Of a stretch of 64,000 bases of DNA, positions 40,799 through 44,281 are shown one piece after another. Origin of the DNA: Polyangiales bacterium. GTDB taxonomy: Bacteria; Myxococcota_A; Polyangia; Polyangiales; Ga0077539. Location: contig JAXLYI010000006.1 of NCBI GenBank assembly GCA_046351555.1, positions 314,284 through 378,283 of the forward strand. Reading direction: 5' to 3'. Numbering within the stretch: the first letter of the stretch is position 1; each line of letters begins with the position of its first letter. The notes under the pieces are model-generated. The model ran no database searches. It was given only the letters and a program-made list of their open reading frames with translations, and was not told the origin of the DNA. A program made the translations under genes and the position numbers.

Positions 40799-43700
40799 CT
40801 ACCGCCGCCCGGACGTCCGGCGGTAGCGCCGAGGGCTCCCCACGTCGAGCCCCACCGCCTGCAGCGTCTTCATGAACCGCGCGAACGCTTGCGACCCGGT
40901 GGCCACCGCGTGCGCCTCCCCCCGCGCGAGCGCCGCGTCGAGCGCGCCGGCCGCGTGGAGGTCGTCGCCGCGCGCCCCGAGCGTCTCCCGCAGTGTCTCG
41001 GCGGCGCCCCAGGCCATCAGCGCGGACACCGCGTCCTCGTCGAAGGGCTGCCCCGGCGCGTGCGTCGCGTCGCCCACCGGCTCGCGCGTGGTGCCATCAC
41101 GAGGGCCCCGCGCGCGCGCTTCGAAGACATCGTCCACCAACGGCGTGAGCTTCAGGAGGTGCAGCGCCCCGACGCTCACCGGCGCCCGGAAGGGCTCGCC
41201 CGTTCGCCCGTCGCGCAGCCTCACCGTCTCGCCGCCGCCCGCGTAACGGTCGCAGCACGACACCACGCGCGGGAGCTCGATGGGCGACGCGCCCCCCGAA
41301 GCCATCATCTCGCAGAGGATCCCCACCGCGTCGCCGCCTTCGAACACCGCCGCGGGGTCGACCACGGCCTCCACCGCGCGCCCGTCGTCGAGCAGCGGGA
41401 GGTCTTCTTCGGCGACGATCCGCGCGACGGCCGAGCGCTCGCCGTGGCGGCTCCCGACGAGGTCGCCGACCGAGAGGGGATGGCGCTCGACCACCCACAC
41501 GCGAACCACCGCGGTCCCCTTCGCGCGGCGGTCGGGGCGGTACACCTCGGCCCGCGTCACCACGCCCTCGCACCCGCGCAGCGCCCGCAGCGAAGCCCCC
41601 TCCGCCACGCCGTCCCGCACGAGCACGCGACCCGCGAGCGCGTCGCCTTCGCGCACCCTCGCCCCCACCCGCGCGAGGCCCTCGTCGTCGAGCCGCGCCC
41701 GCTCGCCAGCGTCGAGGTCGGCGGCGTCGCGGGTGAGCTCGTGACGGCCGCCCGCGGCGCGCCCCAGCGAGCCCGTGACCACGCGGACGTGCGCGGTGCA
41801 GAGGCGCCCTTCGCGCACGAGGCGCTCCGAGACGGCGACGGCCCCGTGGTCGTTGAAGCCCGCCCAGGGCATGAGCGCGGCGAGCACGTCGTCCCCGCAG
41901 GCGAGCGTCCCGTCGACGACGCCGTGGCCCTGCGCGAGCGCGTCGCCGACGGACACGCGGTCGCCCTCGTCGACGCACGGGCGCTCCCGGATCACGCCGC
42001 CGCGCGCGGGCTCGAAGCTCCGCAGCGGGTGCGTCACCTCGTCGCCGTCGCCGCGCACGACCACCTCGCGCGCCGTCGCCTTCACCACCTCGCCCCCGAC
42101 GCGAGACACGACGCTCGCCGTCGCCGCCACGCGCGCGTCGAGGGCGGTCGCCACGCGCGGCGCCGTCGCGCGCAGCGGGGGGAGGGCCTCGCGGAGGTTG
42201 CGCGCGCCTGCGCTCCACCGCTCGGGCGCGTCGTGCACGGCGAAGGGGACGAGCGCCGCCGTGACGCCCACCCACTCGTCGCGGGACGGGTCACGCCACG
42301 CCACCTGCTCCCGGCTCACCGTCGTCGCGCCGGCGCCCGTGATCACGGGGACGAAGGGGCCGTCGGCCTCGCCGTCGTCGACGCGGAGCGGGGCGCCGCC
42401 GAGCGTGAGCGCGTCGACGGAGCGCGCGTGGAGCTCACCCTGCGCGCCCACCATGATGAACGTCGCTTCGAGGCGGCCCTGCCAGCCGACGCGGGCGCCG
42501 AGCGCGAGGGCCGAGCCCGGCGGCCCGTGGTCGTCGCGGGCCTCGATCGGGCAGAGCAGCTTGTACTGCGACCACGCGGTGTCTTCGAGGGCGAAGCCGC
42601 TGCGCTTCGAGGAGCCCGACGCAGGCTCGACCGCGGCGAGCCAGCGCGACTGGGCCACGGCGGCGACGGGGTTCACGCGCGCGACCGGCGCGCTGACGCG
42701 GGTGCGGGTGAAGAGCTCCAGCACGGCGCGCTCGAGCGGACGCGCGACCAGCGAGCTGTGCGGCCAGAAGGAGGCGTCGAGGTCGAACAGCGAGAGCCGC
42801 TCCTCTGCGATCGCCGAGACCCGCGCGAGGCCGTCGCGCACGGCGCCTTCGAGCAGCTCGCCGACGCCGCGCACCACCGCGTCCCCGAGGCTCGGCTCGT
42901 CGGGGTCTCGCGCGAACCCTTCGACGCGGCGAACGAGCGCGACGAGCGTCGCGACGACGTCGTCGGCGGAGAGCGTCCGCGCGTCGCCCGACGTGCCGAG
43001 GAGGCGGTTCATGCGCGCGCGGCCCGCGGGCGAGAGGTCGAAGCGGGTGACGTCGCCGAGCGCGCGCCGCACGAAGTCCGCGGTGACGCGCGGGTCGGCG
43101 TACTCGGGGCCGTGGACGCTCTGCCAGAGCGCGAGGCGGGCCTCCTCCTCGCCGTCGTCGCGGCGGCTCATCTCGGTGCGGAGGATGACGTCGCTGAGGT
43201 CGCGGAGCGTGCGGTCGTACACCGGCCCGAACGGCTGCTGCGCGACGACGAGCAGCGGCACCTCGCGGACCCCGGCCGCGCGCAGCCGCGCGAGGCGGCG
43301 CAGCGTGAGGGGGTCGCCCGCCTCGATGACGACCTCGCCGGTGTCCTCGTCGACGACGTCGCGCGCGGCGACCGCCCCCTCGACCTCGTGGTCGTCGTAC
43401 GCGAGCTCGGTGACGCCCGCCGCGGCGAGCGCCTTCACCGCGGCGCGGGTGAACTTGCGGTGCCTCGCCACACGGACCTCGCCGTTCACCACGACGTCGC
43501 GCGCGGCGCGCCGGCCCGCCAGCCGCGCGGGGTCGAAGCGCAGCGCGACGTCGCGCTCGCCGACGCGGAGGGCCTCGACGGCGTAGGCCCGCGTGAGGAG
43601 TTCCTCGCGGGAGAGGCCCATCGCGCGGGCGAGCGTGGTGGCCGGAACCCACCGGGCGCGGGGCCCGAGGCGCGCCTCGAGCGTGCGCGTCTTCTTCGCC

Positions 43701-44281
43701 ACGCGGACCTCGACGCGGGGCCCGCGGAGCGGCTCGATGCGCGCCCCGTCGCCCCGCGCGAACCCGTGCGCGAACACGTCCTCCGTCGTGAACCACACGC
43801 CCGGCTCGCGCGCGAGCTGCGGGTGCACCACGCGCTCGACGCCGTCGATGACGAAGGTGCCCGCGTCGGTCATCCACGGGATCGCCCCGAGCACGACGTC
43901 CTCCTCCGCCGCGGCCACGATCCGTCGGGCGCCGTCGGGGGCGACCTCGAGGCGGACGCCCAGCACGGTGACCCGGAGGGCGCGCTGCCAGGTGGTTCCC
44001 GCGAGGAGGCAGTCGTGGGGGGACCCCTCGGGCGCGTCGAACGCGTAGCGCACGAGCGCGAGCTCCTGGCGCTCGCAGAACGAGCGCATCGGGAAGCGCT
44101 CGCGGAGGCACGCCTCGAGGCCCTGCAGGAGCCGCGCGTCGGGCGCGACGTCGGCCTGCGTGAAGGCGTCGAACGACCGGCGCTGGTGCGCGATGAGCGG
44201 GTCGGTGTCGGGCATCGGGTCGCCGGGGCGCGATGGTAGAGCGCGACGGCACCGCGCGTCGCGGGCGGCGACGGACGCCAC
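40799..44281 (-). CDS. Highly divergent paralog of the DNA-directed RNA polymerase beta subunit (RpoB-like). It is full-length and collinear with RpoB, but catalytic-site residues are substituted.
   Basis: Collinear matches to E. coli RpoB, from my memory of the E. coli sequence:
- IPWMTDAGTFVIDGVERVVHPQLAREPGVWF against [31 protein letters not shown]
- LCPIE against VCPIETPEG
- LMPWAGFNDHGAVAVSERLVREGRL against [25 protein letters not shown]
- LDDEGLARVGARVREGDALAGRV against [23 protein letters not shown]
- GSRHGERSAVARIVAEEDLPLLDDGRAVEAVVDP against [33 protein letters not shown]
- LRDGRTGEPFRAPVSVGALHLLKLTPLVDDVFEAR against [35 protein letters not shown]
- GQPFDEDAVSALMAWGAAETLRETLGARGDD against [21 protein letters not shown]

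The start is GTG at 44281 or ATG at 44215 (MPDTDPLIAH). Confidence 0.85.
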   Translation of the reverse strand: MASVAARDARCRRALPSRPGDPMPDTDPLIAHQRRSFDAFTQADVAPDARLLQGLEACLRERFPMRSFCERQELALVRYAFDAPEGSPHDCLLAGTTWQRALRVTVLGVRLEVAPDGARRIVAAAEEDVVLGAIPWMTDAGTFVIDGVERVVHPQLAREPGVWFTTEDVFAHGFARGDGARIEPLRGPRVEVRVAKKTRTLEARLGPRARWVPATTLARAMGLSREELLTRAYAVEALRVGERDVALRFDPARLAGRRAARDVVVNGEVRVARHRKFTRAAVKALAAAGVTELAYDDHEVEGAVAARDVVDEDTGEVVIEAGDPLTLRRLARLRAAGVREVPLLVVAQQPFGPVYDRTLRDLSDVILRTEMSRRDDGEEEARLALWQSVHGPEYADPRVTADFVRRALGDVTRFDLSPAGRARMNRLLGTSGDARTLSADDVVATLVALVRRVEGFARDPDEPSLGDAVVRGVGELLEGAVRDGLARVSAIAEERLSLFDLDASFWPHSSLVARPLERAVLELFTRTRVSAPVARVNPVAAVAQSRWLAAVEPASGSSKRSGFALEDTAWSQYKLLCPIEARDDHGPPGSALALGARVGWQGRLEATFIMVGAQGELHARSVDALTLGGAPLRVDDGEADGPFVPVITGAGATTVSREQVAWRDPSRDEWVGVTAALVPFAVHDAPERWSAGARNLREALPPLRATAPRVATALDARVAATASVVSRVGGEVVKATAREVVVRGDGDEVTHPLRSFEPARGGVIRERPCVDEGDRVSVGDALAQGHGVVDGTLACGDDVLAALMPWAGFNDHGAVAVSERLVREGRLCTAHVRVVTGSLGRAAGGRHELTRDAADLDAGERARLDDEGLARVGARVREGDALAGRVLVRDGVAEGASLRALRGCEGVVTRAEVYRPDRRAKGTAVVRVWVVERHPLSVGDLVGSRHGERSAVARIVAEEDLPLLDDGRAVEAVVDPAAVFEGGDAVGILCEMMASGGASPIELPRVVSCCDRYAGGGETVRLRDGRTGEPFRAPVSVGALHLLKLTPLVDDVFEARARGPRDGTTREPVGDATHAPGQPFDEDAVSALMAWGAAETLRETLGARGDDLHAAGALDAALARGEAHAVATGSQAFARFMKTLQAVGLDVGSPRRYRRTSGRR

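Follow-up and report, generated by a model that had tools for sequence, protein, structure and literature searches.

A full-length paralogue of the RNA polymerase beta subunit in Polyangiales with fixed loss of catalytic features and a possible role as a beta mimic

The textbook view gives bacteria a single RNA polymerase (RNAP) with a single beta subunit, RpoB. The known exceptions are the second, functional rpoB genes of actinomycetes (Nonomuraea rpoB(R) and Nocardia rpoB2), near copies that are still catalytic and whose differences lie mainly where rifampicin binds (PMC5431353). Here, we describe a far more divergent rpoB-derived gene in a 64,000-nucleotide stretch of a Polyangiales bacterium (assembly GCA_046351555.1, contig JAXLYI010000006.1, positions 314,284 to 378,283 of the forward strand; hereafter the window). 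The gene lies at 40799..44215 on the minus strand and encodes a protein of 1138 aa, referred to here as pseudo-beta, which keeps the architecture of beta and has lost its catalytic residues. An earlier interpretation of the same DNA made without database searches (the sequence-only reading) knew of no described system with such a paralogue. Our literature search likewise found no description of a dead RpoB paralogue, returning only the functional actinomycete duplicates and generic pseudoenzyme reviews.

Pseudo-beta is unambiguously a full-length RpoB paralogue with the beta fold and a collinear domain order. It matched the NCBIfam rpoB model TIGR02013 (E 1e-149, 500.1 bits, under the curated cut-off of 801) and NF001616 (497.7 bits, under the cut-off of 896); the less-diverged family member P0021 also falls under the TIGR02013 cut-off (695 vs 801). 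Among Pfam domains, Rpb2_6 alone was significant, with Rpb2_1 and Rpb2_7 below threshold (Rpb2_7 marginally) and Rpb2_2, Rpb2_3, and Rpb2_45 not matched, whereas canonical RpoBs carry all six. A phmmer search against PDB sequences aligned pseudo-beta with E. coli beta (E 1e-131) in three collinear stretches spanning residues 7–1125, including the beta2-SI1 region, and Foldseek matched its AlphaFold 2 (AF2) model (pLDDT 70, pTM 0.53) to the E. coli and Vibrio beta chains (E 1e-83, TM 0.5). The collinearity with RpoB proposed in the sequence-only reading therefore held in both profile and structure comparisons, and every RpoB motif that it listed is present in the translation. It was also right that identity is too low for a housekeeping RpoB: pseudo-beta is 30–32% identical to canonical RpoBs, versus 80–89% among canonical Polyangiales RpoBs themselves, and it cannot be the housekeeping beta.

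Relatives of pseudo-beta make up a family of 14 sequences in four clusters at 50% identity. A word-indexed search recovered eight close relatives (43–91% identity), followed directly by canonical RpoBs at 26–30%, and among 1.84 billion representatives searched exhaustively with a profile, only four 50%-identity clusters (P0001, P0008, P0021, and P0022) outscored canonical RpoBs; a further search added three more relatives of P0021. The named carriers are Polyangiales metagenome-assembled genomes (MAGs). Back-translated pattern scans of metagenomes and genomes mostly matched canonical rpoB and gained one family locus (L010) among the matches listed; the rarity of the family in these collections is not firm from such scans, and the exhaustive hidden Markov model search is the better measure of it. 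In a neighbor-joining tree (992 columns, 100 bootstraps), the family was monophyletic in 100 of 100 bootstraps and stood beside canonical Polyangiales RpoB in 56 of 100. P0021, the member that has diverged least, shares 42% identity with Polyangium RpoB and 36% with that of E. coli. These sequence affinities place the origin of the family in a duplication of a Polyangiales rpoB, with moderate support for the sister placement. Since the family groups beside Polyangiales RpoB and nothing related to pseudo-beta was found in viral contigs (IMG/VR), such a duplication is a better account of its origin than a mobile-element polymerase. Membership of a phage or mobile-element RNAP group was accordingly rejected, and the earlier suggestion of a mobile-element remnant is contradicted as well by the surroundings of the gene: the window is ordinary chromosome of uniform GC content, with core neighbors (argD, argF, hsp70, atpA/G, mutL, and Ser/Thr kinase genes) and no tRNA.

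The extent of functional loss was read from a MAFFT alignment of nine window-clade sequences with E. coli and 11 canonical RpoBs (residue numbers are those of E. coli beta). Out of 315 columns invariant in canonical RpoBs, the window clade retains 118, has changed 89 to another family-conserved residue, and is variable at 108. At 91 positions, at least 13 of the 14 family members still have the canonical residue, and 18 replacements are common to at least 13 (W183R, R451A, R452V, L511V, G534E, I572G, F804L, D826G, K1065L, A1067G, G1068S, K1073R, N1108A, L1117A, H1237P, H1244E, S1252D, and Q1288R). E813, D814, R678, and R1106, positions that contact Mg or the nucleoside triphosphate (NTP), vary freely even inside the family. 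Only 18 of the 47 basic residues invariant in canonical RpoB are still basic, several channel positions are now acidic, and Lys accounts for 0.9% of pseudo-beta versus 6–7% of canonical Polyangiales beta.

Along the protein (coordinates on the minus strand), the beta1/protrusion motif IPWMTDAGTFVIDGVERVV (43826..43882; E. coli beta 127–145) is among the best-kept and most constrained parts, and 59% of canonical-invariant positions are retained over the E. coli 1–150 span. The Rif-pocket/fork-loop-2/CPIE segment (42515..42697), delimited from alignments and the translation, is degenerate: GPGGL has become EPASG (G534E being family-invariant), H526Q, R529W, R540S, and H551A are present, the PNIGLI stretch is gone, and S531A is among the replacements in the Rif/sorangicin pocket. 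NFEDS (811–815) has become NDHGA (41840..41854), replacing E813 and D814. Deletions relative to Polyangium RpoB have removed the N-terminal 20 aa, the flap-tip helix (E. coli 893–911), SI2/beta-i9 (939–1041), and 1123–1180. The flap-tip junction, GRVLVRDGVAEGAS (41591..41632), lies where sigma region 4 and NusA dock on E. coli beta; the window clade has this helix deleted, the P0021 clade has unrelated sequence in its place, and P0008 lacks the whole flap. A second junction (41510..41551) marks the absence of the 119-aa insertion of canonical Polyangium RpoB that corresponds to beta-i9/SI2. The double-psi beta-barrel motif GDLVGSRHGERS (41432..41467; canonical GDKMAGRHGNKG) carries K1065L, A1067G, G1068S, N1072E, and K1073R, and KLTPLVDDVFEAR (41114..41152) carries H1237P, K1242V, and H1244E. 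Within the family, H1237P is invariant, H1244E occurs in 13 of 14 members (one has Gln), and position 1242 is Val, Thr, or Ala. The C-terminal clamp-anchor motif GQPFDEDAVSALMAWGAAETLRETLGARGDD (40961..41053) is partly kept, as GQ.F.E...AL.A.GAA.TL.E.L....DD.

Several of these changes had been called in the sequence-only reading. The conversion of NFEDS to NDHGA and the loss of R1106 (now Gly) agree with the alignment. Of two lysines said to have become Arg, K1073 has, whereas K1065 is Leu. The His of DDKMHAR had been taken for H1237; that residue is H1244 (now Glu), and the true H1237 lies in LKLNHL (now Pro). Because the active site and the basic residues have changed and the flap tip is lost, catalysis and normal docking of sigma region 4 can be ruled out, and pseudo-beta is, judging from its residues, almost certainly catalytically inert. 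The earlier proposal of an inactive or mechanistically altered beta thus stands in its first half, through the loss of catalytic and NTP-contact residues, and an altered but active beta is disfavored.

Despite this inertness, the gene is not decaying and is under purifying selection. All 14 members have intact open reading frames (ORFs) of 914–1174 aa, across identities of 35–91% (35% between subclades). The overall ratio of nonsynonymous to synonymous substitution rates (dN/dS, Nei-Gojobori) is 0.41 for the window versus its close relative L005 and 0.47 for L001 versus L010. Values are lower, at 0.19–0.35, for the beta1 and CPIE segments and for the barrel and clamp at the C terminus (0.21 at residues 101–210, ~0.2 over the last 127 residues), and higher for the SI1-like insertion (0.66–1.08) and the 210–510 segment (about 1). 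The hallmarks of a pseudoenzyme are found together here, namely a kept fold, absent catalytic residues, purifying selection, and intact ORFs throughout the 14 members.

We tentatively favor the reading, to which we would give a little less than an even chance, that pseudo-beta is an RpoB-derived pseudoenzyme that mimics beta or competes with it for protein partners. An ancestral Polyangiales rpoB would have been duplicated and one copy would have become pseudo-beta, losing the residues with which beta holds the NTP, the RNA 3' end, and the second Mg2+, as well as most basic residues of the nucleic-acid channel, the Rif-pocket/fork-loop 2, and the flap-tip helix on which sigma region 4 docks. 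The overall beta fold is kept, and constraint is strongest in three places: the beta1 lobe, the CPIE segment just after the degenerate fork loop, and the double-psi barrel with the clamp anchor at the C terminus. In a real beta, those modules contact alpha, beta-prime, and beta-binding factors. Pseudo-beta may therefore bind one or more of beta's normal protein partners, titrating or modulating them or forming an inert core-like complex. Such a putative decoy or regulatory role is the most plausible of the candidates put forward in the sequence-only reading.

A number of points weigh against this proposal. We infer the binding of RNAP subunits or factors by pseudo-beta and its effect, and likewise that the genome also has a canonical rpoB. 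The cell would pay a high price for a dominant-negative beta, and no controlling regulator was found. The AF2 model is of moderate confidence, with the C-terminal 110 residues and the fork region at pLDDT <50. A dN/dS of 0.4 and Lys depletion indicate weak constraint and are compatible with a marginal function. Finally, the P0021 clade still has the IKE motif on which Mfd and CarD dock (E. coli 117–119), but the window clade has lost it. Because of this loss, an Mfd or CarD partner is unlikely here, and a decoy for Mfd or CarD/CdnL acting via the beta1 IKE motif was rejected for the window clade.

The limits of the gene needed care, since a window of ~75% G+C yields long ORFs in many frames, some of them very long and spurious, and ORF lists are hence untrustworthy without codon-position GC. 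Antisense or off-frame ORFs of up to 1625 aa (e.g., 29534-34411, minus strand) overlap the real argD and argF, for example. The ORF at 40799..44281 (minus strand) is in a coding frame, with GC1/2/3 of 0.81/0.54/0.96 and a GC3 typical of real genes. Its true start, however, is the ATG at 44215 (M23 of that ORF), as the equivalent of M23 is the first residue in all homologs and the resulting 1138-aa protein is 100% identical to NCBI MFO0603799.1 ("hypothetical protein U0324_11530 [Polyangiales bacterium]", from a 534-kb contig). The earlier description of a full-length gene at 40799-44281 was therefore correct as to the ORF and its frame and placed the start 22 codons too far upstream. The gene model of 40799..44215 is supported by the GC3 frame, the family alignment, the database match, and RpoB homology. 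The 22 in-frame codons 5' of the start (44216..44281, minus strand), which precede the point where homologs begin, are probably a 5' leader or promoter. At 44233-44238 there is a TACCAT box similar to a TAGCAT box at the equivalent place in L001, and a consensus scan of the region upstream of pseudo-beta found no sigma-70 site. Annotation pipelines label these proteins differently: PGAP calls the window protein "hypothetical", and JGI calls its relatives "RNA polymerase subunit beta".

Pseudo-beta is the first gene of a tight three-gene operon with gaps of 9 and 14 bp. It is followed by a 271-aa protein beginning MCCFSG (39974..40789, minus strand; 9 bp after the pseudo-beta stop) and a membrane protein of 390 aa that weakly matches a bacterial PH (bPH) domain (38787..39959, minus strand; 14 bp after the 271-aa gene). 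Both partners were found only in the window and L005, with identities of 83.5% and 93%, respectively, and a dN/dS of ~0.5 indicating fast evolution. PADLOC, Pfam, and NCBIfam returned nothing informative besides the weak bPH match for these two proteins or for the 327- and 759-aa proteins encoded at other family loci, and an AF2 model of the 271-aa protein from a single sequence reached pLDDT 31.6, too low to be of use. Divergently upstream lies an RCC1-repeat lipoprotein gene (44360-47539, plus strand; 1059 aa, 10–14 RCC1 repeats, a MopE-like metal-binding motif). A shorter RCC1 paralog in L005 (6451-7938, minus strand) is on the opposite side of the operon; the RCC1 genes thus point to local rearrangement between these close relatives.

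Each distinct context read has different neighbors, and none is conserved family-wide. A divergent retron lies upstream and a patatin gene downstream in L001, L010, and L175; L007/8 combine a divergent retron upstream with an FHA/sigma-54 activator downstream; and L006 has a 327-aa gene upstream, no retron, and patatin downstream. In L004, sdhCAB is upstream and a gene for a 759-aa protein of no known function downstream, in L170 A2M/PBP1C are upstream and the contig ends at the gene, and the P0170 contig has unannotated genes on both sides. L176 has an extracytoplasmic function (ECF) sigma gene upstream and divergent, and a 46-aa ORF on the opposite strand downstream. The family member at this last locus, P0022 (968 aa, deep-branching, lacking the SI1-like insertion), is a single case of divergence from an ECF sigma with a SnoaL_2 C-terminal domain (L176:1417-2364, minus strand). 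Uma2 genes beside L005 and L171 were considered as orthologs and rejected; being non-orthologous (24% identity), they give no shared ancestral arrangement. No rpoC or beta-prime-like gene adjoins any family locus read, whereas rpoC is directly downstream of canonical Polyangiales rpoB. As the sequence-only reading had it, the gene is thus standalone and outside rpoBC, diverges from an RCC1 lipoprotein gene, and heads an operon with two uncharacterized proteins. Its further ideas of a system built around pseudo-beta and of a beta-prime-like partner found no support: the two downstream genes are restricted to their own lineage, no neighbor is shared across the family, and nothing like beta-prime was seen next to any member.

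A retron reverse transcriptase (RT) gene (PADLOC RT_other, E 1e-146) lies divergently 0.3 kb upstream of pseudo-beta in two clades. Published retrons of myxobacteria (type XIII) have SWIM and HEAT/ARM proteins as partners, and the paper describing them mentions no RNA polymerase-like protein (Mestre et al. 2020, PMC7736814). Alignment and inverted repeats showed that the 0.3-kb spacer holds a conserved msr-msd with a1/a2 repeats; the element lies at L001:9684-10000, L010:9693-10003, and L007:2490-2795 (minus strand) and at L175:6685-7000, L174:3084-3417, and L171:6740-7000 (plus strand). These Polyangiales elements share the a1 repeat GGCGGCGCG, the a2 repeat CGCGCCGCC, and invariant msd stems, upstream of an RT of 428–438 aa. 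Rfam gave no family match at the retron loci, and the best PADLOC models for the two RTs scanned (L001 and L007) were RT_other/RT_outgroup, not type XIII. No effector gene is conserved downstream of the RT: depending on the locus, the neighbor is a rubrerythrin-like protein, an SNF2 helicase, a transporter, or a 125-aa protein, or there is none. The Polyangiales retron thus appears to form an "orphan" lineage. In L171-L174, orthologs of this retron that carry the same noncoding RNA occur without pseudo-beta, and pseudo-beta with patatin occurs without the retron in the syntenic L006. (L005 and L174 need not be one genome, as GCA_009612935.1 comprises thousands of contigs and may be a metagenome.) No retron lies beside pseudo-beta in L005, L006, L004, L170, L176, or the window, the last of which also contains no retron, patatin, or 327-aa gene at all. 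Because each element occurs without the other, we read their adjacency as inherited synteny; the retron as a functional partner was rejected as the main explanation, and a functional linkage is a minority possibility. At 4–13 kb from pseudo-beta, the window also encodes a 1272-aa AAA_16 (STAND-like) ATPase (48702-52520, plus strand) and a 990-aa MshEN and HEAT-repeat protein (54672-57644, minus strand); the latter recalls type XIII partners, yet the window has no RT. Separately, L006 carries a SMODS/CD-NTase-type cyclase (1872-2822, plus strand; PADLOC Cyclase, E 6e-47) 3 kb upstream of the pseudo-beta–patatin pair, from which it is separated by E1 dehydrogenase, transketolase, and 327-aa genes; the patatin might be part of a split cyclic-oligonucleotide-based antiphage signaling system (CBASS).

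Among rival explanations, we estimate that a relic ranks ahead of a defense decoy, followed by an altered active beta and then an antibiotic decoy. The relic reading, which we consider rather unlikely, holds that pseudo-beta is a slowly decaying, functionless remnant of the rpoB duplication. It would account for evolution faster than that of neighboring genes (between the window and L005, pseudo-beta is 87% identical and the adjoining HSP70 99.7%; between L006 and L007, 56% versus 89% for transketolase), for a dN/dS of 0.41–0.47 that approaches 1 in the 210–510 segment, for a compositional drift towards Ala/Arg and away from Lys, and for the patchy, rare distribution. A decaying gene would not be expected, however, to leave 14 of 14 ORFs intact at identities down to 35%, to fix 18 family-specific replacements while keeping 91 canonical residues in at least 13 of 14 members, or to hold its core segments at a dN/dS of 0.19–0.35 with a GC3 of 0.96. 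Fast evolution is also what a defense module would show, in which pseudo-beta would be a sensor or decoy that mimics phage-targeted host RNAP and releases variable downstream effectors when bound, possibly together with the retron. Short operons with a varying second gene suit this idea, be it a patatin with weak similarity to CBASS lipases (L001, L010, L175, and L006), the 271-aa and bPH membrane proteins (window and L005), or the 759-aa protein (L004), as do the RT and conserved msr-msd in two clades. We nonetheless judge it improbable: PADLOC matched no family to pseudo-beta, or to the 271-aa and RCC1 proteins, the retron stands alone in L171-L174 and pseudo-beta without it in L006, the downstream gene in L007 is an FHA/sigma-54 activator and other loci have ECF sigma or A2M neighbors, the setting is core chromosome and not a defense island, and the RT/patatin/327-aa synteny looks vertically inherited.

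A beta architecture preserved over its full length, double-psi barrel and clamp anchor included, and the retention of R1069, H1070, G1071, R1246, and the D1296/D1297 pair might instead suggest an active, mechanistically altered beta that forms a second polymerase with an unlinked beta-prime-like protein. This is very hard to reconcile with K1065L, H1237P, and H1244E, with the lack of conservation of E813, D814, R678, and R1106 even in the family, with the loss of fork loop 2 and of basic residues contacting the hybrid, and with the absence of an rpoC-like neighbor for any member when canonical rpoB is followed by rpoC; we regard it as highly improbable. Polyangiales make RNAP inhibitors, and target duplication is a known resistance strategy, so that one could propose a self-resistance decoy for a myxobacterial antibiotic of the sorangicin, ripostatin, or myxopyronin class. 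Yet the Rif/sorangicin pocket is replaced (H526Q, R529W, S531A, and R540S), no polyketide synthase, nonribosomal peptide synthetase, or other biosynthetic gene was present among the window genes scanned or in the related loci read, and no paper was found tying rpoB duplication to myxobacterial self-resistance, making this the least credible of the four. Bolder than our preferred reading, and in our view unlikely, is a purpose-built beta mimic, acting either as an immune decoy for phage or toxin proteins that engages variable effectors or as an inducible brake that sequesters alpha and beta-prime. As an immune decoy, it would pass its signal to the patatin lipase or membrane protein, perhaps with the neighboring retron; as a brake, it would form inert core-like complexes that shut transcription down in dormancy or development. 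If true, either version would be the first bacterial system founded on an inactive duplicate of a catalytic RNAP subunit.

A beta paralog that retains its fold, and in which the loss of features for catalysis and for binding nucleic acids and sigma has become fixed, would be a new kind of RNAP-related pseudoenzyme, and this one has persisted across divergence down to 35% identity. Pseudo-beta is surprising in itself, yet rare and weakly constrained. Myxobacteria have large genomes and complex development. If pseudo-beta binds alpha, beta-prime, or beta-docking factors, it would offer a natural dominant-negative or decoy for studying core assembly and transcription control in these bacteria. 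If it is a near-neutral relic, it could still mislead rpoB marker phylogeny and copy-number estimates in Polyangiales MAGs, given the JGI label that its relatives carry.

Compared with known systems, pseudo-beta is closest to canonical Polyangiales RpoB (TIGR02013/NF001616), with which it shares the fold, the domain order, collinearity all the way from the beta1 lobe to the clamp anchor at the C terminus, and a proteobacterial-type SI1-like insertion. It differs in being ~30% identical, below equivalog cut-offs, and recognized in Pfam by Rpb2_6 alone; in lacking the catalytic and NTP-contact residues, fork loop 2, the flap-tip helix, SI2, and E. coli 1123–1180; in adjoining neither rpoC nor ribosomal protein genes; and in being 237 aa shorter than Polyangium RpoB. 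The retron loci resemble type XIII-related myxobacterial retrons (PMC7736814) in having a retron RT with a conserved msr-msd, here 0.3 kb from pseudo-beta in two clades; unlike those, they show no SWIM/HEAT/ARM pairing, the RT is divergent from pseudo-beta, and the window is retron-less. Like the actinomycete rpoB duplicates (PMC5431353), pseudo-beta is a second rpoB-derived gene outside the rpoBC operon; a functional duplicate of that type was rejected, given an identity to canonical RpoBs of only 30–32% and the loss of active-site residues. Some pseudoenzyme paralogs, among them the AdoMetDC prozyme of trypanosomatids (PMC5201418), act as regulators or mimics of the active enzyme, a role that is putative for pseudo-beta; it shares with them a kept fold, conserved catalytic replacements, and purifying selection.

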